A stretch of 64,000 nucleotides of DNA, from contig JBBRER010000003.1 in assembly GCA_038202745.1 (NCBI GenBank), forward strand, positions 676 to 64,675, written 5' to 3'. The translations under genes were made by a program, and so were the position numbers. Source of the stretch: Sphingomonadales bacterium. Its GTDB lineage: Bacteria > Pseudomonadota > Alphaproteobacteria > Sphingomonadales > Sphingomonadaceae. Of the stretch, positions 30,551 to 64,000 are shown piece after piece (the first letter of the stretch is position 1; every line of letters starts with the position of its first letter). The notes under the pieces are model-generated. The model saw only the letters and a list, made by a program, of their open reading frames with translations. It was not told where the DNA came from and did not search any database.

Positions 30551-30603
30551 TACGACCACTTTCTTGTTTGCCCGATGATTATCGCGGTTAGGTAACTTTT
30601 GAA

Positions 30604-38485: not shown

Positions 38486-38487
38486 GT

Positions 38488-39396: not shown

Positions 39397-39449
39397 GCAA
39401 TTCCGGTCCATAGTCATGCCCGGACGGGGCGGCAAGGAGGGGGATCAGG

Positions 39450-42763: not shown

Positions 42764-42770
42764 GCGCGGC

Positions 42771-44537: not shown

Positions 44538-44538
44538 C

Positions 44539-45387
44539 ATGCTGATCGCGCAGATCACCGACATCCACATCGGCTTCGATCCGGGCAGTGCGGACGAGTT
44601 CAACATGCAGCGGCTGCGCAGCGTGATCGCGCGGTTGCTCGACGGCCCCAACCGTCCCGATCTGCTGCTGATGAGCGGCGATCTCACCGAATTCGGCGAT
44701 GCAGAGAGTTACGCGCGGCTCTCCGAAGCGGTGGCGGGGCTGCCGTTCCCGGTGCTGGCGATGACCGGCAACCACGATCTTCGCGAGCCGCTGCTCGCCG
44801 CGTTCCCAAAGACGCCGAACGAAGGCGGGTTCGTCCATTACGTCGTCGATTTCCCCGAGCTGCGGCTGGTGGTGCTCGACACGCTCGAAGAGGGGCGCCA
44901 CGGCGGCGCGTTCTGCGAGGCGCGCGCGGCGTGGCTGCGCGCGACGCTCGACGCCGCGCCGGCGCGCCCGACCGTGATCGCGATGCATCACCCGCCGTTT
45001 GAATCCGGGCTCGCCTGGCTCGACGGCAGCGCTGCCGAGCCGTGGATGCGTCGTTTTGCCGAGGCGACCTCGGGCCGCGCGCAGATCAAGGGAATCGTCG
45101 CCGGGCATCTCCACCGCACGATCCACACCGCGTGGAATGGCTTCTCAGTGACGGTGTGCAAATCGACCGCGCCGCTGGTCGCGCTCGACCTCACCCCGAT
45201 CGACGCCGACGTTCCCGATGGCCGCGCGCTGATCACCGACGAGCTCCCCGGCTACGCGCTCCACCGCTGGGACGGAACGCGGCTGATCACGCACTTCGAA
45301 AGCGTCGGAGAAATGCGCGTGCTCGCGCGCTTCGACGAAGGGCTGCTCGATACGGTGCAGATGATCGACCGCGAGCGGCCGAAGTAG
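44539..45387 (+). CDS. class III cyclic-nucleotide phosphodiesterase-like metallophosphoesterase (CpdA-like)
   Basis: ATG 1 nt after the upstream TAA. Calcineurin-fold motifs DIHIG, SGDLTE, TGNHD, AMHHPP and AGHLHR are in canonical order. Confidence 0.75.
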   Translation: MLIAQITDIHIGFDPGSADEFNMQRLRSVIARLLDGPNRPDLLLMSGDLTEFGDAESYARLSEAVAGLPFPVLAMTGNHDLREPLLAAFPKTPNEGGFVHYVVDFPELRLVVLDTLEEGRHGGAFCEARAAWLRATLDAAPARPTVIAMHHPPFESGLAWLDGSAAEPWMRRFAEATSGRAQIKGIVAGHLHRTIHTAWNGFSVTVCKSTAPLVALDLTPIDADVPDGRALITDELPGYALHRWDGTRLITHFESVGEMRVLARFDEGLLDTVQMIDRERPK

Positions 45388-45410
45388 GCTCGCGCCCAGG
45401 AACAAGTCCC

Positions 45411-45501
45411 GTCATCCTGAACTTGTTTCAGGATCCATCGCTCCCCCTGGTCCGAAGCCGCGTGGTGAGAGATGGACCCTGAAACGAGTTCAGGGTGACG
45501 A
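45411..45501. repeat. MITE/REP-like inverted repeat at the convergence point of the two operons
   Basis: CGTCATCCTGAACTTGTTTCAGGATCC (45411-45437) against the reverse complement of 45475-45501 (CGTCACCCTGAACTCGTTTCAGGGTCC) matches 24/27. Each arm contains its own CCTGAA/TTCAGG hairpin. Confidence 0.7.
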
Positions 45502-49511: not shown

Positions 49512-51406
49512 CAGTAGGCGACCGTCAGGTTGGCGAGGATCGAGACGTACGCCCGGTCGCGCGGCTGGTTGGTGAACAAGTCCTTGAACCCCGCCCCCGG
49601 CAGCAGCGCCGCCGCCGACAGCCGCGCGACGATGTTCTGCGTCGCGCGCGGACGCCAGATCGCCGAAGTCGATAGGTCCCACCCGATCGATTTGGGGATC
49701 GAACCTTCATTGCGCAGCGTCTGGAGCACGATCGTATCGTCGAACCACAAGTGGTTGGCGTTGGCCGAGACGCGCAACTGCGGCGTGAGGTCGAAATCGC
49801 CGCCCGCGCCGATAAGCACCGTGCCCGGATTGTTGAAGTTCGACTGCCCTTGTTCCTTCGACGAACGCAGAGAATTGAGCACGCCGTTGCGCCCATTGAT
49901 CGAAATCACCCGGCCGCCGCCCGCGAATGGGATCGTCTGTCTGATCCAGTAACTCGTGTCCGCGCCCGCGAAGACCGGGTTTTCGAACACCGCGTCGAAC
50001 CCGCCTTCGGTGTTGTCGTACGGATCGGAATCGCCGGTCGCGTAAAGCCCCGACAGCCGAAAGCGCATCCAGTCCTTGTCGTACGACAGTTCCGCCGCGG
50101 CGAACCCCGCGCGCACTTTGGCCTTGCGCCCGGTGAAGAAGCTGTTCCGGTCGCTGCCGAACGCGCCGTAAACCGATCCGGTCAGGTTGAGCCGCCCGAT
50201 GTGTCCGTCGGTGTTGTAGCCGACGTAAAACACGTCGTAATCGCGCCCGCGCAGCGTGCCGAGCAGCGCCGGGCGCACCGGAAAACCGTTGTCGTCGATC
50301 TCGATCTCGTTGCCCTCGCGGTTGCGGTTGTAAACGAGCGTAACCTGCCCGGTCAGCCCCGGGCGAAGAAAATCCTGGCGATAGGCGTTGGCGATGAACA
50401 CCCAGTCGTCACGCGGGCGTACGGTCAAGTTGTTGAGCCCGCTATTGGTGTCCTTCTCGAGCCGCCAGAACGCAGCGAGATTGTATTGAAAGCGGTTATT
50501 GTCGCGATTGCCGAACAGCCGCACGCCGAGCTGTTCGTCGTTGAACAGGAACCCCCGGAAATCGGCTTGAAACGGCTGGATTCCGATGCGCAGCGAATCG
50601 AAATCGTAGCGGTCGGAGACGTTGCGCAAATGGCGGTCGACGAACAGTTCCTGCACGCCGAGGAAATCGTCGGTGCGGCTCGTGCCCTTGCTCGGTTGGA
50701 CGAACAGCACGCGCCGCTCGGGCACGCGGACATGGTTGACGTTGAACGCCAGCGTCACCTTGTATTCGATCTCGGGCGGCTTGAACGCGGTGCTGCCCTT
50801 GAGCAGCGAGGCGCTGGCGATCACCGTCTGCGACAGCACGTAGCTAGCGTCCTTGCCGAACACGTCGATGCTGTGCGGGCGCTGCGTGGTCTGCACCCCC
50901 ACGGGAATCGGGAACGTACGCGGCTCGATTACCGTATCGCTGACGAGGCCGAGGTTGAGGAACCAGTCATCGCCGTGAAGGAATCCCGGACGCTTGCCCT
51001 CGGGGAGCGGAATGTCGCCCTTGAGCACGTTCTGGTGATAGGGATCGCGGCGCGAATGGCAGACCTCGCGCATCGCCTTGAACACATCGAACAGCGACTG
51101 GTCTGCGCCTTTGGGACACAGCCCGGTGAGGATGCGCCAGCGATCGGGAACGGGGAACGCCTGATCGACGGGGAACGCTTCGGGGGGCGGAGCGCGCACC
51201 GCGCCTTCGTTTGTCTGGCGGGCCTTGTCGGGAAGATTGGGATTGTAGCCGGGCTTGCGCCGCCCCTCGATCACGCCGGAATCGACGTCGGGCGGCGTGG
51301 TCTCGTCCGCGTCGGGCGTCGCGGTGGCGACCGGCTCGGGCGGCGGCGCGGCGGGCGGCGGCTCGGCGCCGAGCATCAGCAGCATCAAGGCCAGCCCCGC
51401 GATCAC
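49511..51406 (-). CDS. large outer-membrane beta-barrel protein (porin-like), family unknown
   Basis: Alternating amphipathic strands run throughout and the C-terminus is aromatic (LANLTVAY). The N-terminus is (M)IAGLALMLLMLGA followed by a Pro-rich linker. The start is uncertain (GTG 51406, ATG 51385 or 51376). The stop forms a TGATG junction with the decahaem gene. Confidence 0.65.
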   Translation of the reverse strand: MIAGLALMLLMLGAEPPPAAPPPEPVATATPDADETTPPDVDSGVIEGRRKPGYNPNLPDKARQTNEGAVRAPPPEAFPVDQAFPVPDRWRILTGLCPKGADQSLFDVFKAMREVCHSRRDPYHQNVLKGDIPLPEGKRPGFLHGDDWFLNLGLVSDTVIEPRTFPIPVGVQTTQRPHSIDVFGKDASYVLSQTVIASASLLKGSTAFKPPEIEYKVTLAFNVNHVRVPERRVLFVQPSKGTSRTDDFLGVQELFVDRHLRNVSDRYDFDSLRIGIQPFQADFRGFLFNDEQLGVRLFGNRDNNRFQYNLAAFWRLEKDTNSGLNNLTVRPRDDWVFIANAYRQDFLRPGLTGQVTLVYNRNREGNEIEIDDNGFPVRPALLGTLRGRDYDVFYVGYNTDGHIGRLNLTGSVYGAFGSDRNSFFTGRKAKVRAGFAAAELSYDKDWMRFRLSGLYATGDSDPYDNTEGGFDAVFENPVFAGADTSYWIRQTIPFAGGGRVISINGRNGVLNSLRSSKEQGQSNFNNPGTVLIGAGGDFDLTPQLRVSANANHLWFDDTIVLQTLRNEGSIPKSIGWDLSTSAIWRPRATQNIVARLSAAALLPGAGFKDLFTNQPRDRAYVSILANLTVAY

Positions 51407-51407
51407 C

Positions 51408-53336
51408 CTACAAACCCTGGCAGACGTTTTGCTGGCTTGTGTCGAGGAACGGCGCGAACGGACAGTTGATGAAGCGCAGCCGCACTCCGCCCGCGCCAAA
51501 CGGCACCACCACGGTGTCCGAGCGGATCGCGAGCGGAGCGTTGCCGAACCCGCCGAGCGCCGCCCCGGCGTTGTTCAGCCCGAGGAAGCCGATCATGTCG
51601 TCCTGATCGATCCCGTCGCCCGAGACGCCGATCCCGCCGATCAGCGTGCTCCCGCGGTAGATCGGCACCGAGCCGGGGAATATCTGGATGCCGTTGGCCA
51701 CCCGAGCCTGCGCAGAACAGCGCCGCGGCGCATCGCTCGCGCTCGCGCCGGTGCTGAACTGCAGCCCCTGGACGATATTGCCCGCGATCAGCGCGGACTG
51801 CAGCCCGGTCGAGAACGGGTTGAACTGCGTGATCGGGCGCGACAGCGGACCGTTGGGCGTATTGAGCTGCCCATCGGGAAAGTAGGGCCGTGAGAGGTTG
51901 CCGCCCGCGCGGTCGGAAAACGCGATTTTGCCGGTGAGCGCGCTCGGATCGGCGAGGAACGTGCGCAGTGCGGGCACGAAATGGCGCACATCGGCGCTGG
52001 GATCGGCGGACAGCTCGGCGCCCGCGTTAGGGTGCGAAAAGAACGCCGCAGTACGCGCCTTCTGGAGCGAGACGTCGGTGCCGAAGATCGGCGCGTCGGG
52101 CGCGCGGACGATGCCGAGGATCTGGCCGCGCGTATCGACCACCGAGATCGACACTTGCGCGCGGCTGTCGAGCGGCTGACGGATTTGCCCTCGCGCCCGG
52201 GTCATGATCGTGAACGCCTGGACCAGCGTTTCGCGCACTTCGGCTGCGCTGAGCGGCTGCGCGATATCGCCCGCGTCGGTGCCCGCGCGAACCGGAAAGC
52301 GGTTGTTGCCCGCGCCGTCGGACAGCACGAACGCGTCGGGGTTGGGGAACTCGGCGGCGCGCGAGGGGCGGATACCAGAGGTTTCGGTGCCGTAAGCGGT
52401 CCCGGCGATCACCGCGCCGCCGGGATAATAGCCACGATACGGGACCAGCGCGCCGAGCGCGGGGACAGTCGCGGCAAAGCTCGCGCCCGCGAGCGAGGTC
52501 AGCGCCGGGTAGTCTACATCGGAGAAACGCAGCTGGGTACCGTCGACATAAACCCGGTCGGCGCGGATCGCGGTCGGTGCTTCGAAGCCGACGGTCCCGG
52601 CGAGCGCAATTTTCTCGTCGCGGTCGGAATCGATGTCGAGCACGTCGGGATCGAAAGCGTACTGCCCGTCGGCCAGAACCCCGACCCCGCCGACGAGCAC
52701 GCCGTTCTTGTAGAGCGGGAACCCGCCGGGATCGGCGGCGAGCCCGAGCGGCGAGCGCTGCGGCCCCATCGGGCCGTCGGCGGCGCGGGTCGAAAGGTCA
52801 GAGCACGGCAGCTGACTGAACTGGACCCCGAACAACGGCCCGCTTTCGAGCCCCGGGGTCGAGGCCGCGGGGGGAAAGTGCTGCTGGACGATCTGGCTCG
52901 CGGTGCGCGAGGAGAACGCGTTGCCCGCGCTCGACAGGTAAGCCCCGGTGATCGCCTTGGCGATCGCGGCGGCCTCGGCGGGGACCACCGCGCCCTGGAT
53001 GTCCAGATCGGCGCCGCCCGGCGCGTGAGACACCAGCGCGGTCGCGGGCGCGCCGGTCATTTTGAGCACCGCGAGCACATTGCCGACCCGGTCGGTCACC
53101 GCGATTACTGCGGGCGCGCTGTCGGCGCGCGCCTGCGCGGCGGCTTCGGCGAGGACTTTCTGGACGTCGATCACGCTCAACGATTCGGCGGCGGGGACCG
53201 CCAAGACGCCGCCCACGGGTGGCGGCGTTGGCGTCGGCGTCGTGCCTCCGGTCGCGCCGCCCCCGCTTGTTCCGCCGCCCCCGCACGCGACGAGCGCGAA
53301 GCACGCCAGCGCGGCTATCCCCCGCCTGCCCCGCAT
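51408..53336 (-). CDS. lipoprotein with two GlcG/HbpS-like (DUF336, haem-binding/degrading-like) domains
   Basis: Lipobox FALVAC followed by a Gly/Thr/Pro linker. Domain 1 reads AVIAVTDRVGNVLAV...AAAIAKAITGAY. Domain 2 reads SISVVDTRGQILGIV...SLQKARTAAFF...IGGIGVSGDGIDQDD. Confidence 0.65.
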   Translation of the reverse strand: MRGRRGIAALACFALVACGGGGTSGGGATGGTTPTPTPPPVGGVLAVPAAESLSVIDVQKVLAEAAAQARADSAPAVIAVTDRVGNVLAVLKMTGAPATALVSHAPGGADLDIQGAVVPAEAAAIAKAITGAYLSSAGNAFSSRTASQIVQQHFPPAASTPGLESGPLFGVQFSQLPCSDLSTRAADGPMGPQRSPLGLAADPGGFPLYKNGVLVGGVGVLADGQYAFDPDVLDIDSDRDEKIALAGTVGFEAPTAIRADRVYVDGTQLRFSDVDYPALTSLAGASFAATVPALGALVPYRGYYPGGAVIAGTAYGTETSGIRPSRAAEFPNPDAFVLSDGAGNNRFPVRAGTDAGDIAQPLSAAEVRETLVQAFTIMTRARGQIRQPLDSRAQVSISVVDTRGQILGIVRAPDAPIFGTDVSLQKARTAAFFSHPNAGAELSADPSADVRHFVPALRTFLADPSALTGKIAFSDRAGGNLSRPYFPDGQLNTPNGPLSRPITQFNPFSTGLQSALIAGNIVQGLQFSTGASASDAPRRCSAQARVANGIQIFPGSVPIYRGSTLIGGIGVSGDGIDQDDMIGFLGLNNAGAALGGFGNAPLAIRSDTVVVPFGAGGVRLRFINCPFAPFLDTSQQNVCQGL

Positions 53337-54679
53337 CAGCGCAGCGACCCGATCGCGCGCGCGGCTTCGCCCAGCGCGGCGCGGAAGCCGGCGGGATCGT
53401 AAGTGTTGGGGTTCTTCACCGCGGCATAGGCGCGGTCGATATTGCCGCGGATCCCCGCCGCCGCGCCGACCGTCACCCGACCTTCGCGGACCAGCGCGCC
53501 CAGCAGAGTATCGACCGCCATCACCGCCTGAACCGAACCTTCATAATCGGTGAACCGCGCCGCGGTCGTCCGCTCGGCGATCCGCGCGACCACGGTGAAC
53601 GCGGTGTCGGGCGAATAGCCGTGGTCGAGCCGTCCGGCGAGTGCGTTCGCTGCGGCATTGAGCTTGACCGCCGCTGCCATCGCTTCACCGCGTCCCGCGC
53701 CCATCGCGCCGTGGAAGGCGCGACTGGCGGACGCGAACCCCGCAGCGGATTCAGGCGCCAGCGTTTTTGCGACCGCATCGAGCAGGATCGCATTCTCGTC
53801 GTTGAACGGCGGCGTCGCGAACGGGATCGGGCGCCCCGGATTGGTCTCGAACGTCAGCTTGCGCGCGGGGCCGTCGGTGATCTGGCGGTGGCACGAATGG
53901 CAATCGAAGAAATAGAATTCGGGGAACAGCCCTTGCGAACCCAGCTGCGGGCGCGTGAACAGCGCGGTCTGGCGCGCGACCGCTTCGGCCTGCCCGACCG
54001 CCCACAGCCGTACGCTGTCGGTCCTGGGCTTGCGCGCCGTGTAGCGCGCGTCCTCGGTCCAGTGCTGCTGAAGCGCGGAAAACAGATCGAGCTCGAACGC
54101 AACGCGCGGATGTCCCGCGGCCATCATCTTGTGCGTCACGAACTGCCCGGGCGCGGCGCTGCCGAAGTGGCAATCGAGGCACACCGAGGCGCGGCGGCGG
54201 GCGTCGACGAGGTCGGTCATCCCGTTACGGACGTTGGCGGCGTGCGATCCGGCCAGCGCGTAGTGGCTCGCGAGCCAGCCCGACGCCGCTCCGTGGCAGC
54301 TTTCGCAGCCGACCCCGTCGCTTATCTGGAACTGCGACCCGTGCGCGCTGCCGACGGTGGCGTGGCAGCCAAGGCACTGCGGCGCGGAAGTCGCGCTGCC
54401 GAGCCCGAGCGTCGCTGCGATCTGCCGACCGCGCGCTCCGCCGAGCACCGCGTAAGCGCGGCTATGCGCACCCGCCTGGCTCGACGGGTCCTGCCAGTGG
54501 AGGATTTCGTCCTGGCGGACATGCGCGCCGTTGCCTTCGGCGCGGCCGTGGCAGGTCGATCCCGCGCAGCTGGCGACGCCTTCGAACGTGCCCGCCGCGC
54601 CCGGCCCCGCGAAGGCCAGCGCCAGCAGCAGCGCCAGCGCCGCCCAAACTCCCGCGCTTCGCACTTCCCCCAACCGCAT
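53336..54679 (-). CDS. periplasmic multihaem c-type cytochrome (4 CXXCH + 1 CX4CH)
   Basis: ATG 54679 is 2 nt after the tpsA stop (an alternative GTG is at 54706). It has a signal peptide. Haem sites are CAGSTCH, CLGCH, CESCH, CLDCH and CHSCH. The C-terminal half is helical and has no haem sites. Confidence 0.75.
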   Translation of the reverse strand: MRLGEVRSAGVWAALALLLALAFAGPGAAGTFEGVASCAGSTCHGRAEGNGAHVRQDEILHWQDPSSQAGAHSRAYAVLGGARGRQIAATLGLGSATSAPQCLGCHATVGSAHGSQFQISDGVGCESCHGAASGWLASHYALAGSHAANVRNGMTDLVDARRRASVCLDCHFGSAAPGQFVTHKMMAAGHPRVAFELDLFSALQQHWTEDARYTARKPRTDSVRLWAVGQAEAVARQTALFTRPQLGSQGLFPEFYFFDCHSCHRQITDGPARKLTFETNPGRPIPFATPPFNDENAILLDAVAKTLAPESAAGFASASRAFHGAMGAGRGEAMAAAVKLNAAANALAGRLDHGYSPDTAFTVVARIAERTTAARFTDYEGSVQAVMAVDTLLGALVREGRVTVGAAAGIRGNIDRAYAAVKNPNTYDPAGFRAALGEAARAIGSLR

Positions 54680-54681
54680 CG

Positions 54682-57600
54682 TCACCCGCCGTCGTTGTCG
54701 GGACACTCCCCGCCGGAGCCATCCTTAGCGCGGTTGCAGCGCTCCTGCCACAAGTCGTCGTTGCCGACGCCGGTCACCGGCTCGTCGATCAGCGGGGGCG
54801 AATCGAACGGCTCGAGCGCGCGGTATTGGAGCAGCGGGAGGAGCAGCGCTAGCGAACCCTCGCCTTGGCCGGTAAGCGAGCCCGAGATCGTCGACGTGCC
54901 CGGTCCGACGCGCATCGCGAGCACACAATCGAGCCCGATGATGCAGCCGTTGATCGTCGAGAAGCGGTCGAACTGCCCGGTGCTGAGCGCAGGTCGGCCA
55001 TTGATCAGAATCGTACCCGCGGTGTCGAGCCCGTAGTGCGGCACCCCGCCGGCGAACGTCATCCCGTTGATGACGATCTGCGTCGCCGCGCTGGTGGTCG
55101 TGATCGCGATGCCGTTCGCGGAGAACCCGCGGCGATCGGCGTAGGGCGCGCCCGTCCCACTGTTCTGGATGAACAAGCCCCCAGTCGCAGTCAGGTTGAT
55201 TTGCCCGGCCTGGAGCCAGCCGCCGGCGATCGGAGCCACGTCGTTCACCGCCAGCCGCGCGTTGATCGCGTCGGTCGACTGGCCCGCGATGTCGGTGAGC
55301 GCCGCTTGGCTCGCCACCGCGATGATCCCGCCGACGAGGTCGAGCGTCCCGCCAAGCGCGCCCGCAGCGTCGCGCATGACGATGCTGCCGGTGTCCGCGA
55401 CAACGTCGATCCGTGACGGGTCGATCGAGAAACGGTCGGCGGCGCTACTTGTTGTCAGCCGCACCGCGCCGGTGACCGCAACCCGCCCCGGGGTGAGTAG
55501 CTTGAACTCGCCCCCAGTCCCGATGTTGGCGTTCGCGCCATAGCTCAGTGCGAGTTGTCCGACGATGAAATCGGCGACGGTCGCGGGGTTGACGGTGACC
55601 GGCACCGTGATCGTGATCCGCTGGTCGGCAAACAGCTGCAAGGCTTCGCTCGCCGACAGGCTCCACGCCCCCGCTTGCGTCGCGCCGCCGATGAAGGTGC
55701 GGCCCGTCGAAATGCCGTTGGTCAGCACGATCGTCTGGGTCGTCCCGCGCAATCCGACCCGCGCGGTCGCGCCCAGCACGATGTCGCTCGACGTGAGCGC
55801 GATCGTCCGGCCCAGAATGAGGCTGCCTGCGGTGAACGCGCCGCCCGCGCGCGCCGTCAGCGCGTTGATAGCGGTCACCGGGGCGTCGGCGGTGATCGCG
55901 CCGCCCGCGACCAGCGTGACCGAATCACCCGAGACCGCACCCGTCGCATGAAGTGTGCCGCCGGTGCTGGTCAGCGTGGTCGCGCCGGTCGCGCTCGCGC
56001 CGGCGATATCGAGATTGCCCGCGGTTCGCACCGACAGCGCGCCCGCGCTCGCGGTCGCGCTGGTTACAGTCAGCGCGCCCGGCGAAACCAGATCGACGCT
56101 GCGCCCTTGCGCGGTCACCGCGCCAACCGAAGTCAGGTTCGCAACGCCGACCGCGCCATTCACCGCGCGCAGCAGCGTCGTCCCACCCGAAGCGAGTTGC
56201 GCCAGAGTGACCCCCCCGGGTGCGATGATCTGCGCGTTTCCGTTAGCGCTCAGCGGAGTGGTGGCGACCACCGTCCCGCTGGCCGATGTCACCGCCAGCG
56301 CACCGTTTGAAGCGACCGAGCCACCCAGCACGACGTTGCCGTTCGCGCTCAGCGTAATCCCCACGCCGCTGAGCGCGCCCGCGGTCGTGAGTGCGCCGCC
56401 GGTCGATGTCACTCCTAGCGCACCGCTCGCAGCGACCGAGCCGCCCAGCACGACGTTCCCGTTCGCGCTGAGCGTCACCCCCGCACCGCTGAGCGGGCCG
56501 GCGGTCGTGAGCGCACCATTGGTCGATGTCACGCCCAACGCACCGTTGGAAGCGACCGAACCGCCCAGCACGACATTGCCGTTCGCGCTCAGCGTAATCC
56601 CCGCGCCGCTGACGGCGCCGGTCGTCGTGAGCGCCCCGCCGGTGCTGGTCAGCGCCACTGTGCCTGTCGCGCCCGCGGTGCCCGTCGTCAGGTTGCCCGC
56701 GGTGGTGACCGCGAGATTGCCCGCCGTCGCTTGGGCCGAGGTGAACGTCAGCGCGCCGGGCGAAGTCACCGACGCGCCGCGCCCAAGCAGCGTCACCGCT
56801 CCGGGCGAAGTCAGCGCGTTCACGGTGACATTGCCGTTCGTCGCGCGCAGCAGCGTGGTCCCGCCCGACTGGACGCCCGCAAGGTTCATGCCCTGCGCGG
56901 CATCGAGGCTGACGTTCCCAACCGCGCTGACCGTCCCCGGCGCGCTGAACGTTCCGCCCGCGGTCACGCTGAGCGCCCCGAGCGAGGCCAGCGCCGCGTC
57001 CGACTGGACGTTGCCCGCGGCGGTATAGGCTATCCCGACCCCGTGGACCGCGCCGGTGTTGTGGATCGCGCCGGCGGTGCTGGCCAGCGCGACCGACCCG
57101 GTCGCATCGACGGTGGTCAGATCGAGGTTGCCCGCGGTGCGGATCGACAAGTTGCCCGCGGTCGCGTCGGCGTCGGCGAAGCTGAGCGCGCCGAGCGAAT
57201 TGAGATCGACCGAAGTGCCAAGCACCGTAACGAGCCCAGTCGAACGCAAGTCGTTGCTCACGCTCACCGCCCCGCCCGGCGCGCGCAGCAGCGTGGTCCC
57301 GCCCGAAACGAGATCGGTCAGCGAAATCCCGGTGCCGGCGACGATGCTGACATTGCCCGCGCTCGTCAGCCGGCCGCTGCCCGCAAGATTACGGCCGATG
57401 GTGAAATCGATCGGACCCGCCACATCGAGGCTTGCGCCCGGAGCGATCGTCAGCGCCGCGGCGCGCGGAGTGACCAGCATGAACTGCCCGCCCACTTTGA
57501 GCGGCGCACCAGCGATCGACCCGGTAAACCCATTGCCCGCCGCGCCGGTCGCGCCGTCGCCGCGCACGCTCAGGTCGCCCGCGATGGCCAGCCCGGCTCC

Positions 57601-60600
57601 CGCGTTGCCGACGGTGACCGTAAGCCCCGTCGTCCCACCGACGTCGGCATTGCCCGCCCCGTCGACGCCTTGCGCCTCGATATCGAGGCTGGCGAGCTTG
57701 CGCGGGGTGACTGCGCCGCTCAGCGTGTCGGTCAGCGCGAAAATTGCGGTGCCCCCGGCGCCGCGCCCGATGATCGAGCCCGCGCCGCCGAAGCCGCTCG
57801 CCTCGACCAGCGTCGGCCCCAAGTCGAATGCCCCATCCGCGACCGCTATCGCCGCGCTTCCCGCTGCCGCGTTGCCGCCTGCGCCCTGCGTCGTGGTGCC
57901 CGGACCGCCGTTGCCGCCAAATGCGTCCGCAAAGACGGATACGCCCGACGGCGCGGTCACGCGCGCGCTGCTCCCCGCGGGCATCGTCAGCGTCGCGGTG
58001 CCGCCCGTTCCGTCACCGCCGTTGCCGCCGGCGCCGAACGGATTGCTTGCGCCGTTCCCGCCGAAGCCGCCCGCGTCGATGTCGATCGCGGGCGTGTCGA
58101 GCGTGCCCGCGCTTGCGGTCAGCGATGCCATGCCGCCGAAGCCTTTGCCCGCGACCGCTGCAACCTCGCCAGCAGCGGCTACGCGAGCCGCCGAGCCGCC
58201 GAACCCGCTGGCATAGATCGCGAGATCGGTCGCGGTCGCGCTCCCCCCGCTCAGCACGAAGCGCGCCGAACCGCCCCGGCCGTCGCCCGCGGCATAGGCC
58301 GCTCCGGCACTCGACGCCGAGGTTCCCCCGGTTCCAAGCGCGCTGATCTCGAGCGCGGCGCTGTTCAACTTGCCCGCGCCCACGGTGATCGAGGCATCGC
58401 CTCCGGTGCCTTTGCCGCCGTTGCCGCGCACCGCGACTTTGCCCGCGCTCGCGCCCGCGGCATTGCCGTCGGCGCTGACCCGCGTGAACCCGCCGAGCGT
58501 CATCGTCCCGAGAACGCCGGTGACGTCGATCGAGGCGATGCCCCCGGTTGCGTTGAAGCCTTGGCCGGTTAGATCGGCGAAAACCCCGTCGCTCGCGTCG
58601 GCGGTGACCGTCGTCGTCCCCGCGATCGACACGCTGCCGTCGCTGGCGAATAGCCGCGCGGTGCCGCCGGTCGCATTCGATGCCTGCGTCCCGTTGCCGC
58701 CGAAGCCTTGGGCGCCGATCAGCGTGTCGCCGCTGCCGATCCGGCCTGCGCGGATATCGAGCACGCCGCCGTTCTGCGCGCCCGCGACCGCACTGCCGCC
58801 CGTCGCTTGCCCGGCGGTCGTGCTCGCGCCGATCCCCGTGGCGTTGGCGTTGAGCGCCAGGCCGAACGCGCGAATTGAACCGCCGTCGGCGATCAGCGAG
58901 ACGCTCCCGCCGCGCACGTCCGGGCTGGTCGTCGGCTTGGTTCCGAAGGAGGGCACGAACACGCTGGCGTTGGCATGAACGTCGATCTTTCCCGCGACGT
59001 TGAGCGCGCCGCCGCCGCTCGCGCGGATCGTCGCGGTCCCGCCCTGGGCGAAGCTTCCCGCGGGTCCATCGACCCCGCTCATCGCGTCGAGGCTGACGAT
59101 AAAATCGCCCGCCACGTCGAGCGAGCCCGGCCCCGCGACGTCGAGCGTGAACGTTCCCCCGGTCGGATCGAGCGCGCCGGAGCCGTCCATCGCGTCCCCT
59201 ATGCTTTGGAACGAGGTCCACGACTGCGCCTGCTTGGTCAGGCTGATCGCAACATTGCCGCCGAAAGCATCGCCCGAGGTCGAGCCGAAGCCGCCTCGCG
59301 CGTTCGAATAGAGAGCGACATCGCCGAGTTTCAGGAACCCGCCCAAAGTGTCGGCCGGTTGGGCTTTGTCCTGTCCGGTGTCGCCGATCGAAATCGAGCC
59401 CCCACGGGCATTGCCGCCGATCGTCCCGCTGCCGCCGTTGGCGGAGGCAACGAGTGTCGTCGAACCGGCCGACAGCGTTCCGCCGTAACCCGCCGACAAA
59501 GCGATCGTTCCGCCGATCCCGTCACCGCCCGTATCGCTGCCGAACCCGCCGTAGCCCGAGGCATCGATAAAGAGCGAACCGAAATCGAGCGTGCCGCCGT
59601 TGGCCGCGAACGAAACGCTCCCGCCGGTCCCGGCCAATCCGAATTGCCCGCTGTCCGACGACGTGCCGTAGCCGGTTGCATACGCTGTGACCGATCCTGT
59701 CACACGGATCAGCCCGGGCAGGGTGTCGATGTCCGACGGCCCCGCGACCATCGAAATCGTGCCACCGTCGGTCGAAGTCCCCGCGTAAAGATTGAGCGCG
59801 CCATTGACCACAATGTTCGAGCCGGCGCGCGCGTTGAGTGAGATTTGGTGCGCCGAAACAAGCGTGGTGTCACCGCCGAAGGTCAGATCGGCGCCCGGCT
59901 TGGGCGCAAGCGAGAGCAGGTTCTCGGCATAAATCGTCGAGCGGTTGAGGATGGCCGCGTTCGACAGTGAGAGGTTGGCGAGCGCCGGACTGGCGGTGGT
60001 GAGCGAGTATGGATTGCCCGCCTGGAGGATCACCGAGCTGCCGTCCTGCGCCGCGACCGCCGCCGGGGTGTAGCCGATCGTCCCCGACAGCAGCATCGTC
60101 AGCGCGGTGTTCTTCGGCACCGCGACGATCTTGACTTGTTGCTGATCGCCCAGGCCGGTCGAGGCCGGGCCGCCGGTGGTCCCGGTATGGACGATGCCGT
60201 TGGCGTCGTCGGTCCCCTCGGAGATCGTCATATCGATATCGACCAGCCCAGCGTTGAAGCTGATTTGCCCTGCGTTGCCCGCCGCAAGCAACGCCTGGCC
60301 GTCGACGTTGATCGTCCCGCGCTGTTCGACGCGCGGCGAGAATACCGCGACGTAGCTGGCCGCGCCGGCCTGCCCGGCGTTGATCGTCGCGCCCGGCTGG
60401 ATCACCACCGAACCACCGGCGCCGCTGAACGATGCCGATAGTTTGGTGTCGAGCGTGCCGCCATTGGCCTGCAAGTCGTTGGTCGTCAGCAGCAGGCTGC
60501 CGACGTTGAACGTCGCGGTGCCGCCGATGACGATCCCGGTCGGGCTGTAGAACCACACCCGGCCCCCCTGCACGCCGTTGATCGTGCTGTTGACCGTGCC

Positions 60601-60990
60601 GTTGAAGGCGACCCGGCGCGCTACCGGGTTACCCTGCGCGTCGACCGGGATGATCCGGTTGAGCACGGTGAAATCGGGTGCGCCGCTGGCCCCACCCATG
60701 AAATTCGCCGTGGTGCCCGCGGGCTGGAACTCGATGTCGGTGGGCCCGGCCCCCCGGTCGGTCGGGGTCCAGTTGATGATCGATTCGCGCGAGAACGGCG
60801 TAATGTCGGTCCGTCCCGAGCTGGTCGACACCGAGGCGCTGCCCGAGACGACCGTGGCGCTGCCCTGGAAAGATTGTGCGTCGAGTTCGGAGCCCACGGA
60901 CAGCGCCAGCAGCGTGGCGGAGGCACAACCCGCGAACAGCATCGCTCGGTACTGATTACGGCGCTCGGATTGGGCAAGGCGGGTGGTCAT
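54682..60990 (-). CDS. two-partner-secretion exoprotein (TpsA, filamentous-haemagglutinin-like beta-helix), 2102 aa
   Basis: ATG 60990 (ATGA overlap with the tpsB stop), a signal peptide, and a divergent TPS domain (IINW...FTVLNRI...VWFYSPTGIVIGG). About 1900 aa of Gly/Ala/Thr/Ser-rich repeats follow, ending in a Cys-containing C-terminus CNRAKDGSGGEC. Confidence 0.8.
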   Translation of the reverse strand: MTTRLAQSERRNQYRAMLFAGCASATLLALSVGSELDAQSFQGSATVVSGSASVSTSSGRTDITPFSRESIINWTPTDRGAGPTDIEFQPAGTTANFMGGASGAPDFTVLNRIIPVDAQGNPVARRVAFNGTVNSTINGVQGGRVWFYSPTGIVIGGTATFNVGSLLLTTNDLQANGGTLDTKLSASFSGAGGSVVIQPGATINAGQAGAASYVAVFSPRVEQRGTINVDGQALLAAGNAGQISFNAGLVDIDMTISEGTDDANGIVHTGTTGGPASTGLGDQQQVKIVAVPKNTALTMLLSGTIGYTPAAVAAQDGSSVILQAGNPYSLTTASPALANLSLSNAAILNRSTIYAENLLSLAPKPGADLTFGGDTTLVSAHQISLNARAGSNIVVNGALNLYAGTSTDGGTISMVAGPSDIDTLPGLIRVTGSVTAYATGYGTSSDSGQFGLAGTGGSVSFAANGGTLDFGSLFIDASGYGGFGSDTGGDGIGGTIALSAGYGGTLSAGSTTLVASANGGSGTIGGNARGGSISIGDTGQDKAQPADTLGGFLKLGDVALYSNARGGFGSTSGDAFGGNVAISLTKQAQSWTSFQSIGDAMDGSGALDPTGGTFTLDVAGPGSLDVAGDFIVSLDAMSGVDGPAGSFAQGGTATIRASGGGALNVAGKIDVHANASVFVPSFGTKPTTSPDVRGGSVSLIADGGSIRAFGLALNANATGIGASTTAGQATGGSAVAGAQNGGVLDIRAGRIGSGDTLIGAQGFGGNGTQASNATGGTARLFASDGSVSIAGTTTVTADASDGVFADLTGQGFNATGGIASIDVTGVLGTMTLGGFTRVSADGNAAGASAGKVAVRGNGGKGTGGDASITVGAGKLNSAALEISALGTGGTSASSAGAAYAAGDGRGGSARFVLSGGSATATDLAIYASGFGGSAARVAAAGEVAAVAGKGFGGMASLTASAGTLDTPAIDIDAGGFGGNGASNPFGAGGNGGDGTGGTATLTMPAGSSARVTAPSGVSVFADAFGGNGGPGTTTQGAGGNAAAGSAAIAVADGAFDLGPTLVEASGFGGAGSIIGRGAGGTAIFALTDTLSGAVTPRKLASLDIEAQGVDGAGNADVGGTTGLTVTVGNAGAGLAIAGDLSVRGDGATGAAGNGFTGSIAGAPLKVGGQFMLVTPRAAALTIAPGASLDVAGPIDFTIGRNLAGSGRLTSAGNVSIVAGTGISLTDLVSGGTTLLRAPGGAVSVSNDLRSTGLVTVLGTSVDLNSLGALSFADADATAGNLSIRTAGNLDLTTVDATGSVALASTAGAIHNTGAVHGVGIAYTAAGNVQSDAALASLGALSVTAGGTFSAPGTVSAVGNVSLDAAQGMNLAGVQSGGTTLLRATNGNVTVNALTSPGAVTLLGRGASVTSPGALTFTSAQATAGNLAVTTAGNLTTGTAGATGTVALTSTGGALTTTGAVSGAGITLSANGNVVLGGSVASNGALGVTSTNGALTTAGPLSGAGVTLSANGNVVLGGSVAASGALGVTSTGGALTTAGALSGVGITLSANGNVVLGGSVASNGALAVTSASGTVVATTPLSANGNAQIIAPGGVTLAQLASGGTTLLRAVNGAVGVANLTSVGAVTAQGRSVDLVSPGALTVTSATASAGALSVRTAGNLDIAGASATGATTLTSTGGTLHATGAVSGDSVTLVAGGAITADAPVTAINALTARAGGAFTAGSLILGRTIALTSSDIVLGATARVGLRGTTQTIVLTNGISTGRTFIGGATQAGAWSLSASEALQLFADQRITITVPVTVNPATVADFIVGQLALSYGANANIGTGGEFKLLTPGRVAVTGAVRLTTSSAADRFSIDPSRIDVVADTGSIVMRDAAGALGGTLDLVGGIIAVASQAALTDIAGQSTDAINARLAVNDVAPIAGGWLQAGQINLTATGGLFIQNSGTGAPYADRRGFSANGIAITTTSAATQIVINGMTFAGGVPHYGLDTAGTILINGRPALSTGQFDRFSTINGCIIGLDCVLAMRVGPGTSTISGSLTGQGEGSLALLLPLLQYRALEPFDSPPLIDEPVTGVGNDDLWQERCNRAKDGSGGECPDNDGG
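56281..56640. repeat. 3 x 120-bp in-frame tandem repeat inside tpsA
   Basis: Units start at 56281, 56401 and 56521, and a partial fourth starts at 56641. They are aligned by eye with roughly 85-90 percent identity. Each encodes a 40-aa unit, GALTTAG.LSG.G.TLSANGNVVLGGSVA.NGAL.VTST. Confidence 0.8.
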
Positions 60991-62759
60991 GAACCCCTCC
61001 AGGGAGTGAGGCGTGTGGTGATGGTGAACAGCGCGCGGACGTCGCCGCGCCGCGCCTGCGTGCCGGCGCGGTCGAGCGGGACCGCCAGCGTGAAATTGAA
61101 GTCGGCATGGTCGCCCCAGCGCGTGCGCACCCCGCCGCCCGCCGACCAGACGTGACGCGGATCGTCGGTCGCGCCGCCGTCGTTGGTCCATACCCACGCG
61201 GTGTCGAGGAACGCGAACGGCTGGAACCGCCATTGCTCGGGGGTTTGCGGGGTCAGACGCCCGGCGCGCAGCTCGAACCCGCTGCCCACGCCGCTGTCGC
61301 CCTGGACCACGCCCGGATCGAAGCCGCGCCCGATCGTGTAGTTGCCCAGGCTGAACTGCTCGTAGCTGAGCAGCGGGTCGGGCGAGTATTGCACGCGTGG
61401 GGTCAGCGCGAAAGTGATCGCGGGACCCGGGCGGAACTCGATCGCGGCTTCGGCGCGCGCGACGAACCCGGTTGGGTCGGCGGTGAAGTTGCTGATCGGG
61501 ATCGCCGGGAACAGGCACTTGGTCACCGGGCGGCAATTCGGGCTCGCGCCGAGCACGTCGAGTCCCTGGCGCACTTCGGCGCCGAGTGCGGCGCGCCAGC
61601 GCGGCTCGCTCGCGGTAAAGCCGCCGCGACTGCGCAGGCTGGCGGAATCGAACGCGTCGAGATCGAGCCGTGCGAACGCGACTCGCAGCTTGTCTTGGGA
61701 GAGCGGATTGGGGCCGAAGCGGATTTTCTGGTCGATCGCCTCGAGACCGACGGTCGCGCCGAGCGAGAGCGCCTGGCGGCGGATCAGCGCGTCGCGCAGA
61801 TGCCCTTCGAAAATCCACGTCTCGGTGCGAAACGCGCCGCGCGCGATATCGGGATGACCGCGTCCGTAAACGACTTGCCCGCCCAATCGCAGCCCGTTGG
61901 CGTTGAGCGCGAATTCGTGGGTCAGCTCGGCGACGGTCTGCTCGCGGGTCTGGAAAGTGTTGTAGAGGCTCAGCGTCGTGCGGTCGCCGAGCCCGGTCAG
62001 GTCGTTGAGCACGAGCTGGGCGAAGCCGCCGAACGGCCCGGTGGTCTGCGCGCCGAGGTTCTGGACGGTCGCGTAAAGCTCGACCGGACGCCGCGTGACG
62101 ACGACGTCGCCGACCACCTCGCCCGGTGCGGTCCCGGCGGGGCGGAGCACGAGGCGGACGTCGTAGCCGGGCAAATCGCGCGCCAGCAGCAGGCTGCGCT
62201 CGGCCTCGTGGGTATTGAAATATGGCCGCGTGGTCAGCTTGCGCAGATGCGCGGCGATCAAATTTTCGGACTTGCCCGGCTGTCCGCGCACCTGAATATC
62301 GACCAGCTTGGCGATCAGCACATCCATCCGCACGGTGCCGCCGGTGTCGATCCGCTGCGGCGGGATCTGGACCGCGGCGAGGTAGCCCATTTCGCGCAGC
62401 CGGGTCGCGGCGCGGTCGCGGACTTCGCACAGCGCCGAAATCGGGACTTCGTGCCCCGCGTACTCGGCCCAGGTGTCGCGCAGCGCTTCGGGCGGGACCG
62501 CGCTTTGGCTGCCGAAATCGACGCTTGCGAAGTTCGCCTTGACGTTCGCGTAAGCCGGATCGGCGAGCGGGCAAGGGCCACGTTCGATATCGCCCTCGAT
62601 GGTAAGCCGCGAGCCGCGCGTCTCGTCGCGCGGCTGCGCCACGCGCAGCTCCTCGCGCGTCGGGGGAACCGTTTGCGCGAGCGCAGGAGCCGCCCAGCCC
62701 GCGAGCGCGAGCGCGGCCAGCGAAACCGCCTGGCGTTTTTGCCCTATGCCATTGCGCAT
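60987..62759 (-). CDS. ShlB/FhaC/HecB-family two-partner-secretion outer-membrane transporter (TpsB)
   Basis: Signal peptide, a POTRA region (VPISALCEVRDRAATRLREMGYLAAVQIPPQ...GTVRMDVLIAKL), then a 16-strand-type barrel ending in an aromatic-rich C-terminus. Confidence 0.8.
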   Translation of the reverse strand: MRNGIGQKRQAVSLAALALAGWAAPALAQTVPPTREELRVAQPRDETRGSRLTIEGDIERGPCPLADPAYANVKANFASVDFGSQSAVPPEALRDTWAEYAGHEVPISALCEVRDRAATRLREMGYLAAVQIPPQRIDTGGTVRMDVLIAKLVDIQVRGQPGKSENLIAAHLRKLTTRPYFNTHEAERSLLLARDLPGYDVRLVLRPAGTAPGEVVGDVVVTRRPVELYATVQNLGAQTTGPFGGFAQLVLNDLTGLGDRTTLSLYNTFQTREQTVAELTHEFALNANGLRLGGQVVYGRGHPDIARGAFRTETWIFEGHLRDALIRRQALSLGATVGLEAIDQKIRFGPNPLSQDKLRVAFARLDLDAFDSASLRSRGGFTASEPRWRAALGAEVRQGLDVLGASPNCRPVTKCLFPAIPISNFTADPTGFVARAEAAIEFRPGPAITFALTPRVQYSPDPLLSYEQFSLGNYTIGRGFDPGVVQGDSGVGSGFELRAGRLTPQTPEQWRFQPFAFLDTAWVWTNDGGATDDPRHVWSAGGGVRTRWGDHADFNFTLAVPLDRAGTQARRGDVRALFTITTRLTPWRGS

Positions 62760-62786
62760 CGCTATCGACCCCCGCCCGCGTTCGCT

Positions 62787-63530
62787 CTAGCGCCGCGCCA
62801 GCGTCGTCGACATCAGGTCGAGCTGGGCCTTGCAGCCTTTGTCGATCAGCGCGGCGGCGAGGTTCTCGGGGCCGACGGGCATGTTCGGCAGCTGGATGAA
62901 AGTGACGTAGCTCGCCGCGCCGCTCGCGCCGGTGATGCGATACGTCGCGCCCGGGCGGATCGCGAGCTTCGCGCCGTCCCACGCCGCGACCGGGGCGTCG
63001 GCGGTGAACGCGACATTGGTGCCGGCTCCGCTTTTTTCGTCCTTGACCGTATAAGCCGCCGCTCCGGCCGAACTGCCGCGCCACAGGCTGACCGCGGATG
63101 CATCGACATAGCAATGCGGCCCCGATTGCGCGGTATCTACGTACCACAGGTTCGGGCTGGGCATCCGCCCTTCCGTTCCGGGCGCGCCGCGCACCGCCCC
63201 GGTGCGGACGCGCGAGGCCGCCATCGGTCGGGTGAACATCGCGAATGTCGCGCTCTGCGCCGCCGCCGCGCTGCCGTTGAGGGTGAAGGTTCCCCCGCCG
63301 CGCAGCACCCGCGTGCCCTTGCTGTCGAGCACGGTGACAATGTCGCCCGCGCGCAAAGTGATCCGGGCGTTGTCGTCGAGCTTGCGCCCGGCGGGATAGT
63401 CGCGCGCCGAAGGCCCGCTCGAGGCGACGACGATCGCCGCGGCGGCGAGCGTCGGGGCGGCGAGGAGGAGCGCCCCGGCGACGGCCAACGCGGCGCGGCG
63501 GACGAAATGGTCATGCGAGGATCGAGGCAT
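62787..63530 (-). CDS. secreted protein with FecR-like N-terminal beta-sandwich segment
   Basis: Signal peptide AALAVAGALLLAAPTLAAA. YPAGRKLDDNARITLRAGDIVTVLDSKGTRVLRGGGTFTL resembles the FecR-domain pattern. The family call is weak. Confidence 0.4.
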   Translation of the reverse strand: MPRSSHDHFVRRAALAVAGALLLAAPTLAAAAIVVASSGPSARDYPAGRKLDDNARITLRAGDIVTVLDSKGTRVLRGGGTFTLNGSAAAAQSATFAMFTRPMAASRVRTGAVRGAPGTEGRMPSPNLWYVDTAQSGPHCYVDASAVSLWRGSSAGAAAYTVKDEKSGAGTNVAFTADAPVAAWDGAKLAIRPGATYRITGASGAASYVTFIQLPNMPVGPENLAAALIDKGCKAQLDLMSTTLARR

Positions 63531-64000
63531 CGTTCTCTCCCAGATCGCGGATTCGCGACAACAAGTTCAGGATTGCACTATCGTGCGGAAAAGTCTTGGC
63601 GATTGTCGCCAGCGCGGTAACCCGTTTCGCGCCCGCCTGCCCCAACGCGGTGACCAGATCGTCGCGCGCCGCCTCGGGAAAATCGGGCGTCGCTTCGAAA
63701 ATGTCGACCGGCTGGGCGCGGCCGCGCAGCACCACCCGGCCCAGCGGCCGCCACCAGTCGAGCCCCGAGCGCTCGACGAACTCGCGGCTCGCCAGCACGC
63801 TCGAGCCGAGTTCCTTGTTCGCGGCCTCGAGCCGGGCGGCGGTGTTCATCGCGTCGCCAAGCGCGGTGTACTGGATGCGGCGCTCGCCGCCGAAGTTGCC
63901 GACCACCGCCTCGCCGTAATGCATCCCCACGCGAGTCTTGCCGATCGGGGGAATCCCGGGGCCGGCGCTGGCGCGGAAATCCTCGCCCGCGCGCCACATC
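63511..64000 (-). CDS. class III adenylate/guanylate cyclase, C-terminal part only (5' end outside window)
   Basis: GMHYGEAVVGNFGGERRIQYTALGDAMNTAARLEAANKELG is the canonical cyclase-homology-domain C-terminal motif. The stop at 63511-63513 overlaps the next gene by 20 nt. Confidence 0.75.
   Translation of the reverse strand, partial: MWRAGEDFRASAGPGIPPIGKTRVGMHYGEAVVGNFGGERRIQYTALGDAMNTAARLEAANKELGSSVLASREFVERSGLDWWRPLGRVVLRGRAQPVDIFEATPDFPEAARDDLVTALGQAGAKRVTALATIAKTFPHDSAILNLLSRIRDLGENDASILA

Follow-up and report, generated by a model that had tools for sequence, protein, structure and literature searches.

The gene array at the end of the window

The window that we analyzed is a stretch of 64,000 nucleotides (nt) from contig JBBRER010000003.1 of a Sphingomonadales bacterium (assembly GCA_038202745.1). 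The last 18.5 kb of the window, from 64000 to 45522, is an unbroken run of minus-strand genes (Table 1). Within this array is a predicted two-partner secretion (TPS) pair, tpsB and tpsA. The genes before the pair encode a nucleotidyl cyclase, which is cut by the end of the window, and a small protein that we call X. The genes after the pair form a four-gene core, which encodes a multihaem cytochrome (CytA), an HbpS-like lipoprotein, a putative outer-membrane beta-barrel, and a decahaem protein with an LVIVD propeller.

The first-pass annotation of this sequence described the array as a single minus-strand operon of about 18.5 kb, headed by the cyclase and its neighbors. The four junctions that it relied on are exact: the cyclase reading frame, which ends at 63511, overlaps the start of X (63530) by 20 nt; 27 nt separate the end of X (62787) from the start of tpsB (62759); tpsB and tpsA overlap by ATGA, and 5 nt upstream of this is a Shine-Dalgarno sequence, GGAGGGG; and the cytA ATG at 54679 lies 2 nt past the tpsA stop codon (TGA, CG, ATG). 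The three junctions downstream of the cytA start are just as tight. Both the cytA/hbpS-like junction and the junction between the barrel and decahaem genes are TGATG overlaps, and the TAG of the hbpS-like gene is followed, after 1 nt, by the GTG of the barrel gene. So the operon-like packing stands, but the cyclase module is not the head of the unit. In every relative, a gene for a CHAT-domain protein of ~1020-1050 amino acids (aa) lies directly upstream of the cyclase, with a gap of 5-19 nt, and because of this we think that the array begins with the CHAT gene. (The source contig ends at 64,933, before that gene.)

At the other end of the array, the inverted repeat in Table 1 is the only large hairpin in the region. 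It lies 3' of the decahaem stop codon and before the convergent plus-strand genes, and it is likely to mark the end of the transcription unit. It separates two convergent gene sets, and may act as a terminator in both directions or be a small repeat element. Consensus scans found no sigma-70 promoter-like sites, and no terminator-like sites at the array junctions, but such scans say little about alphaproteobacterial DNA of high G+C content (65-72% in this window). There were 8 terminator-like sites in total, as against 12.6 expected from shuffled sequences. Both of the minus-strand sites are within tpsA (59126-59105), and we did not treat them as evidence.

We rejected one competing gene model. 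An open reading frame of 2821 aa from a GTG codon (54682-63147, minus strand) includes all of tpsA, but its 719 extra codons run through tpsB, and we consider it to be an open-frame artefact. Long open reading frames are no evidence of genes in DNA with ~70% G+C.

Table 1. Features of the array and of other parts of the window (positions within the 64,000-nt window)
Feature	Position	Strand	Description
Cyclase (fragment)	63511-63999 (gene open to 64000)	-	162 aa (codons); 3' end of gene, cut by window end
X	62787-63530	-	247 aa
tpsB	60987-62759	-	590 aa
tpsA	54682-60990	-	2102 aa; start ATG at 60990
TPS domain of TpsA	60016-60873	-	~aa 40-325; FxxPxG variant (WFYSPTGI) with LNRI
120-nt tandem repeat in tpsA	56276-56643	-	3.1 copies, 82% matches; 40-aa beta-helix coils of the variable TpsA stalk
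Conserved C-terminal beta-helix module of TpsA	54931-55809	-	aa 1728-2020; ends STINGCxIGxxC
Extreme C-terminal tail of TpsA	54685-54798	-	PPLIDEPVTGVGNDDLW-x3-C-x10-C, after Pro-rich or low-complexity linker
cytA	53336-54679	-	447 aa; secreted multihaem cytochrome c
hbpS-like lipoprotein gene	51408-53336	-	642 aa
Putative outer-membrane beta-barrel gene	49511-51406	-	~630 aa; GTG start
decahaem-LVIVD gene	45522-49511	-	~1329 aa from ATG at 49511
Inverted repeat	45410-45446 / 45464-45500		37-nt arms, 86% complementary, 17-nt loop
FAD/NAD oxidoreductase	39450-41900	+	816 aa; 2 cNMP-binding domains, 4Fe-4S clusters (Pfam)
Cytochrome b561-like membrane protein	41900-42763	+	Pfam
Second decahaem cytochrome	42771-44537	+	CXXCH count
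Calcineurin-like metallophosphoesterase	~44539-45387	+	Pfam
CcmH/CycH-type TPR protein	38488-39435	-	Cytochrome c biogenesis
Glutamate-dehydrogenase-like gene	34582-35937	+	Identified by reading the sequence
Run of chemotaxis-like genes	25222-33389	-	Identified by eye from N-termini
tRNA gene	6150-6233	-	Rfam match

What the genes encode

The identities that the first-pass annotation gave to the cyclase, TpsB, TpsA and the cytochromes hold up, given matches to profiles, motifs and the sequences of solved structures. TpsB matches ShlB (PF03865; E = 3.1e-18, 66.8 bits, with a cut-off of 22.7) and POTRA_2 (PF08479; E = 2.1e-5, 24.7 bits, with a cut-off of 24). It has GRGF at residue 477, where the (V/I)RG(Y/F) motif of loop L6 is expected in Omp85 proteins. 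From these features, TpsB is predicted to be an Omp85-type (type Vb) two-partner secretion transporter.

The window's TpsA has no Pfam match of its own above the cut-off. But over residues 122-249 it is similar to the HxuA TPS domain (4i84; E = 1.2e-4), and the NCBIfam model adhes_FxxPxG gives E = 2.9e-8, which is below that model's cut-off. Also, PF05860 is present in many homologs of the first 500 residues of TpsA, and all 16 of the full-length orthologs that we extracted contain the motifs LNR(I/V) and WF(Y/F)SPxGI. Since tpsB and tpsA are adjacent and co-oriented, and this order is kept in all of the loci that we compared, the sequences indicate a genuine two-partner secretion pair.

The rest of TpsA appears to be a long beta-helix. 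Its composition is 18% Gly, 16% Ala, 11% Thr and 9% Ser, with just 0.3% His and 5 Cys residues, and it contains no CXXCH motifs. Orthologs from over 25 loci are 37-47% identical from end to end, yet they vary in length from 1351 to 2431 aa. Conservation peaks in the TPS domain (aa 100-325) and in a C-terminal module (aa 1728-2080). We modeled the C-terminal 403 residues with AlphaFold2 (AF2), from a shallow alignment of 7 sequences (6 homologs were found). The model is an all-beta helix up to about residue 2020, with pLDDT mostly above 85, followed by a disordered tail. The module had no significant fold match; the best non-significant ones were beta-helical adhesins and tailspikes.

The orthologs share a common plan for the tail: STINGCxIGxxC is followed by a linker that is rich in Pro (some orthologs have poly-PT or poly-P) and then by PL(I/V)DEP(V/I)TGxGN(D/E)DLW-x3-C-x5-10-C. 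This final motif occurs once per locus, at TpsA C-termini only, in 29 loci, including those in which tpsA does not adjoin cytA. By analogy, a short motif with a Cys pair beyond a flexible linker looks like a docking or retention element. The prodomain of FhaB also has a Pro-rich region followed by a conserved extreme C-terminus.

The gene pair itself might suggest a toxin of the CdiA type (contact-dependent growth inhibition) or the ShlA type (cytolysin), and the sole solved relative of TpsB is CdiB (6wim; E = 0.008). However, there is no VENN or ELYN motif in the 16 TpsA orthologs, the C-terminus is conserved rather than polymorphic, and Pfam finds neither a toxin nor a haemolysin domain in TpsA. 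A small immunity gene is also missing: cytA begins almost immediately after tpsA. Given these motifs and the gene context, we rejected both readings of TpsA, and we see hardly any chance that either is correct.

The cyclase fragment matches PF00211 (E = 6.6e-5; 23 bits, with a cut-off of 21.9), and it is 59-64% identical to the C-termini of proteins with CHASE2 and Guanylate_cyc domains from three related loci (L002, L005 and L006). The N-terminal part of the protein lies beyond the window, and the first-pass annotation had asked what its sensor domain might be. All of the orthologs that we examined (668-690 aa, typically ~675) have a CHASE2 domain (PF05226), along with transmembrane segments and a full cyclase domain. 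In the alignment, the fragment's YTALGD places Thr at the Asp position before (A/I)(L/W)GD, and the orthologs have the Lys of KxxGD. We take this Lys/Thr pattern to be the signature of class IIIb cyclases, which suggests that ATP is the substrate. This class III cyclase, which is predicted to have a CHASE2 domain like its orthologs, is probably an adenylate cyclase. The CHAT protein encoded upstream of it in the relatives has a signal-peptide-like N-terminus, and is taken to be a secreted TPR-CHAT protease.

X was previously labeled as FecR-like, and this label fails. X has no match in Pfam or NCBIfam. PF04773 (FecR) matched 0 of 30 members of the X family at E < 5 and 0 of 10 atypical members at E < 0.1. 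As a control, genuine FecR-domain proteins from sister loci do match PF04773 (E = 5e-7 and 8e-8), and comparing these to the X family with hhalign gave a probability of just 0.33% (E = 0.18). Finally, a Foldseek search of the Protein Data Bank (PDB) with an AF2 model of X (pLDDT 83) gave no match at E ≤ 1e-3. Based on these five tests, we rejected the FecR identity of X. In the model, X consists of a small beta domain at the N-terminus, followed by a linker, a beta sandwich of Ig-like type, and two helices. It has a signal-peptide-like N-terminus and two invariant Cys residues. Its exact sequence is recorded elsewhere on a 1.9-kb Logan contig only. The X family has 1448 cluster representatives at E ≤ 1e-3, and the named members are all hypothetical proteins from Sphingomonadales. 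We predict that X represents a distinct, unnamed family of exported (periplasmic) proteins.

As for the four-gene core, CytA matches Cytochrome_C554 (PF13435; E = 8e-9) and, with four CXXCH motifs and one CX4CH, is taken to be a pentahaem protein. The decahaem-LVIVD protein has 10 CXXCH motifs, a C-terminal LVIVD beta-propeller (PF08309; E = 2.5e-15) and a match to PF14522. Encoding multihaem c-type cytochromes together in this way is reminiscent of porin-cytochrome conduits. The 630-aa protein between them had no Pfam or PDB match, even with a profile search. There were weak matches to Alginate_exp in 5 of 21 orthologs (best E = 0.0089), and the protein's C-terminus (...NLTVAY) has alternating hydrophobic residues. 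The mean column identity of the protein is 72%. We consider it to be a putative outer-membrane beta-barrel. When CytA, the 630-aa protein and the decahaem protein were searched against the sequences of solved structures, no useful match emerged. Homology to MtrA, MtrB, MtrC or PCC proteins was sub-threshold only (E = 0.0061 for the MtrC domain and E = 0.0028 for the DmsE family).

The 642-aa lipoprotein contains three HbpS/GlcG-like stretches (PF03928; E = 2.9e-22), and its lipobox, LVAC, can be read from the sequence. HbpS-like proteins are a haem-binding family, and the best match of TpsA to a solved structure is to HxuA, which binds haem and haemopexin. So we considered if TpsA might supply haem or iron from the environment to the lipoprotein, which is encoded two genes downstream, and to the barrel. 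But the match to HxuA is confined to the generic TPS domain, the hbpS-like gene belongs to a core that also occurs without TpsA (see below), and no TonB-dependent receptor or haem ABC importer is encoded within the array. A role in haem capture seems very unlikely to us. Similarly, the HxuA/HxuB system of Haemophilus influenzae (PMC4873976), whose HxuA is the closest solved relative of the TPS domain of TpsA, resembles our pair in the secretion domain only: we found no haemopexin context and no HxuC-type receptor.

The four convergent genes on the plus strand (39450-45387) accompany the core in 29 of the 55 loci with a full downstream flank. The cyclase, the oxidoreductase with cyclic-nucleotide-binding (cNMP-binding) domains, and the metallophosphoesterase could together be a set for the synthesis, reception and hydrolysis of a cyclic nucleotide, which we infer from the domain content. 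A path for electrons to the cell surface, starting from NAD(P)H in the cytoplasm, is also plausible, with each of its steps inferred from the domains. A gene for a CcmH/CycH-type protein of cytochrome c biogenesis is divergent from the oxidoreductase gene. Long open reading frames at 36476-39091 overlap the region of this CcmH/CycH-type gene.

Gene order across the Sphingomonadales

We examined two samples of related loci. The first was seeded on the hbpS-like gene, with one genome per species, and comprised the best 80 of at least 505 relatives. The second was seeded on X in metagenomes, and it is unbiased with respect to cytochromes. Recurrence in other genomes had been set beforehand as a test of whether the arrangement is meaningful, and the result was strongly positive.

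The best 80 loci in the first sample are all from Sphingomonadales, except for metagenome-assembled genomes that are labeled only to class or phylum. cytA was found in all 80 of these loci, and the four-gene core is present wherever the locus reaches far enough. The upstream side is more variable. Upstream sequence of 7 kb or more was available for 69 species loci. Among these, tpsA abuts cytA in 10, and tpsA or tpsB is nearby, but degraded or parted from cytA by unrelated genes, in another 8. CHAT-cyclase-X abuts cytA without the TPS pair in 10; cyclase-X is followed by a DabAB insert in 2; a paralogous CHASE2 cyclase abuts cytA in 3; and a genuine FecR-domain protein with a 422-aa exported protein lies upstream in 10. 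The remaining ~26, which are mainly from Sphingopyxis, have none of these in the flank.

In the X-seeded metagenome loci, the cyclase is immediately upstream of X in 59 of the 59 with upstream sequence. The gene after X could be identified in 72 loci, and it was tpsB (39) or cytA (33) and nothing else. (The remaining 8 contigs stop less than 350 nt past X.) Seven loci show the end of tpsA, and in all 7 it is followed by cytA. Overall, the order CHAT, CHASE2-cyclase, X, TpsB, TpsA, cytochrome C554, HbpS-like was found in L002, L003, L005, L006 and L167. The order seen in the window recurs in 4 loci that were reached via homologs of X, in about 10 species-level genomes, and in 39 metagenome contigs. 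This arrangement is far beyond chance. The first-pass annotation knew of no other fusion of such a module to a multihaem conduit. Far from being peculiar to this genome, the fusion turns out to be the rule for the cyclase-X module. Cultured carriers of the full array include Novosphingobium sp. BL-8A, N. flavum NBRC 111647, Sphingobium fuliginis DSM 18781, and Altererythrobacter sp. Root672.

From these comparisons, tpsBA appears to be an accessory cassette that is always located between X and cytA, is vertically inherited, and is coupled to cytA. We consider it accessory because the four-gene core also occurs without tpsBA and without the cyclase. The first-pass annotation had suggested that the exoprotein could be a scaffold for the extracellular cytochrome. 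About half of the cyclase-X-cytochrome loci lack TpsBA, as do many loci with the bare core, so it cannot be an obligatory scaffold. In a neighbor-joining tree of 95 X sequences, loci with and without the TPS pair fall into two large clades, with only 3 changes of state. The composition of the tpsA region is unremarkable, and no mobile-element genes flank it.

In 15 loci, cytA starts between -8 and +68 nt from the tpsA stop codon, and in five others this distance is 115-166 nt. The gap from X to cytA in TPS-less loci has a median of 222 nt, and the gap from X to tpsB in relatives has a median of ~94 nt, instead of 27 nt in our window. A reasonable reading is that the relatives have a regulatory region after X, with tpsBA lying between it and cytA, and that this spacer has shrunk to 27 nt here. 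We found no shared CRP- or Clr-like palindrome in the X-to-tpsB or X-to-cytA intergenic regions. The sequence CCCAA-N2-TTGGG is present in 13 of 43 X-to-cytA spacers (~220 nt, from TPS-less loci) and in none of the shuffled sequences. These spacers are related to each other, so the recurrence may reflect shared ancestry, and we give it no weight.

Alternatively, tpsBA could be a hitch-hiker, that is, an ordinary adhesin cassette in a permissive spot past a good promoter, which is co-expressed with the cytochromes but has no joint function with them. Most of the genomes that we sampled have the core without TpsBA, TpsA has no redox motif, and genes for DabAB, a thiamine pyrophosphate (TPP) enzyme, and aldehyde dehydrogenase are inserted at or near the same site. 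Nevertheless, we consider this explanation to be unlikely. The cassette is at one identical position in Novosphingobium, Sphingobium, Altererythrobacter, Rhizorhapis, and Porphyrobacter; it is vertically retained and usually overlaps or abuts cytA; and all homologs of this TpsA subfamily whose context we checked adjoin the cytochrome cluster.

Several loci have other genes at this site. A DabAB-type transporter of inorganic carbon (DabA with a proton-antiporter-like subunit) is encoded between X and cytA in L036 (4725-7316) and L055 (3268-7249), and thus occupies the site that is held by tpsBA in other loci. In L028, L035 and L069 (~5000-8200), which are Sphingobium-type loci, genes for a TPP-dependent enzyme and an aldehyde dehydrogenase are between tpsA and cytA. 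The pair was also noted in L012, L053 and L085, and in some loci without tpsA, it precedes cytA. tpsA is broken into at least two open reading frames in L008 (2607-8484), L050 (2092-6978), and L167 (10001-15847), and L167 also lacks an intact cytA. These splits could be due to pseudogenization or to errors in assembly.

A second sensor module is found at the same core in other loci (L025, L010, L012, L034, L053, L059, L083, L009, L070, L077, L067, L068 and L075). It comprises a 422-aa exported protein with no Pfam match and a genuine FecR-domain protein (PF04773), often along with a paralogous CHASE2 cyclase of ~750 aa. In L025 (6182-8198), the FecR gene abuts cytA.

Elsewhere in the window, the product of the glutamate-dehydrogenase-like gene (N-terminus VAVTDHVDFNGFMAGVQRRNPHQPEF) has near-identical counterparts, as judged by their N-termini, just upstream of cytA in L016, L007 and L053. 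This recurrence hints at an ancestral neighborhood that has been rearranged here. The run of chemotaxis-like genes includes a putative receiver domain (MKTCLIVDDSRVIRK) and CheB-, CheR- and CheA-like starts. The tRNA gene is the only match to an Rfam family in the whole window.

Possible roles of the array

On balance, we lean towards the view that the array encodes a surface cytochrome system that is linked to CHASE2 and cyclic AMP (cAMP), with a co-expressed beta-helical fibre, exported by TpsB, that acts as an adhesin or spacer. TpsA would cross the inner membrane by Sec, and TpsB would recognize its FxxPxG-type TPS domain and thread it through the outer membrane, where it would fold into a long fibre whose length is specific to the lineage. 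With tpsA and cytA presumably coupled in translation, cells would produce the fibre along with the cytochrome/barrel complex. As an accessory adhesin or spacer, it might hold the cell, or its surface cytochrome, to a solid redox partner or to a neighboring cell. The Cys-containing C-terminal tail would probably tether the fibre at TpsB or in the periplasm. Meanwhile, the CHASE2 cyclase, with X and the CHAT protein, would sense a periplasmic cue and make cAMP. The cAMP could then act on the cNMP-binding FAD/FeS oxidoreductase that is encoded opposite, and the neighboring metallophosphoesterase is a candidate for degrading it.

Known systems offer parallels for parts of this proposal. CdrA of Pseudomonas aeruginosa has C-terminal cysteines that are reportedly implicated in its retention at the surface. 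Whether this TPS adhesin is present at the surface is controlled by two factors, a nucleotide second messenger and a cysteine protease in the periplasm (PMC4694147). The likeness between CdrA/CdrB-LapG/LapD and our array is an analogy at the level of mechanism only: the candidate protease here is CHAT (caspase-like) instead of LapG, and the messenger enzyme is a CHASE2 adenylate-type cyclase instead of the c-di-GMP receptor LapD. FhaB/FhaC of Bordetella, and the TPS (type Vb) pathway more generally (reviewed in PMC5422565), are similar in that an Omp85-type TpsB with POTRA domains is encoded just upstream of a beta-helical exoprotein of over 2000 aa that has an N-terminal TPS domain. In contrast to FhaB, the TPS domain of TpsA has FxxPxG (WFYSPTG) rather than NPNG, and there is no Fil_haemagg repeat from Pfam. 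Also, the genes of the pair lie between cyclase-sensor and cytochrome genes, and the host is an environmental alphaproteobacterium.

Several observations count against the proposal. First, the core occurs without TpsBA in Erythrobacter/Porphyrobacter-type loci and without any nearby cyclase in Sphingopyxis, and in some loci from Sphingobium and Parasphingorhabdus, unrelated genes part tpsA from cytA by 3.4-6 kb. Second, transcription may start from a promoter near the 3' end of tpsA, within the gene, or from one in the 27 nt between X and tpsB, and the ~94-nt gap of the relatives may leave room for a second promoter, which would give two nested units. Third, the barrel is putative, and the adhesin role and the tail tether, while plausible, are drawn only from analogy.

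For the sensory side, there are precedents from Sinorhizobium meliloti. Its CHASE2 adenylate cyclases include CyaD1, CyaD2 and CyaK, and CyaD1 is paired with SMc02177 (which has a FecR domain) and SMc02178; the large exported TPR protein SMb20495 is in the cAMP-dependent Clr regulon; and the outer-membrane protein NsrA is needed for signal perception (PMC5498481, PMC7529298). In Burkholderia, a CHASE2 kinase is paired with a LysM-FecR protein (PMC5192318). As in S. meliloti, our array has a class III cyclase, with a predicted CHASE2 domain, beside small exported partner proteins. However, X is not a FecR-domain protein, the outputs are a TPS pair and multihaem cytochromes instead of infection-control genes, and we saw no Clr or Crp regulator in the window.

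These precedents, in which CHASE2 cyclases rely on envelope partners (PMC7529298, PMC5498481), raise the question of whether TpsA might be the antenna of the sensor, instead of part of its output. TpsA would then be the input of the CHASE2 cyclase: upon contact with a surface, X and the TPR-CHAT protein would read or cut its periplasmic tail, leading to cAMP and electron flow. Past a Pro-rich linker, the tail does carry a short linear motif that is invariant, together with a Cys pair; both CHAT and X have signal-peptide-like N-termini and would be exported; and proteolysis of the TPS adhesin CdrA by periplasmic LapG is a precedent (PMC4694147). But CHAT-cyclase-X is complete in 33 loci without TpsA, and because the trio is conserved there, TpsA is not its primary input. 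We find it quite improbable that TpsA is the antenna. A more specific version seems comparably doubtful: the tail (PLIDEPVTGxGNDDLW and the Cys pair) would be periplasmic and bound or cut by X and TPR-CHAT, so that contact with a solid redox partner would cause CHASE2 to make cAMP, which would open a cNMP-gated electron path from the FAD/FeS oxidoreductase, via cytochrome b and the two decahaem proteins, to the surface. If it were true, this would be a contact-activated switch for extracellular electron transfer in aerobic Sphingomonadales.

Returning to the surface cytochrome system with an accessory fibre, the core also resembles MtrCAB, PCC and uet/DFE-type clusters with beta-propellers (bioRxiv 10.1101/2022.05.06.490989), in that it has a periplasmic multihaem cytochrome, a large protein of putative outer-membrane type, a large multihaem protein, and a propeller. 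It differs from these conduits in that homology to MtrA, MtrB or MtrC is not detectable, the propeller is fused to the decahaem protein, and an HbpS-like lipoprotein has been added.

Some elements of the array were already known, namely CHASE2 sensors with small exported partners, TPS adhesins that are controlled by second messengers and proteases, and porin-cytochrome clusters that bear propellers. In the literature that we searched, we found no published description of this Sphingomonadales array or of a TPS pair or a CHASE2 cyclase with a multihaem conduit. To our knowledge, two-partner secretion is known almost only from pathogens, where it serves adhesins, toxins and haem capture, and most of the known multihaem conduits of the outer membrane are from anaerobes that respire metals. 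We also know of no ligands for CHASE2. Here, in common aerobic bacteria of soil and water, a TPS pair and multihaem genes share one array with genes for a predicted CHASE2 cyclase, a caspase-like protease that would be secreted, and an oxidoreductase with cNMP-binding domains. If these genes act together, then CHASE2 would gain a tractable output, a TPS exoprotein would gain a new role, and a large and ecologically important order would have a signal-controlled redox system at its surface.

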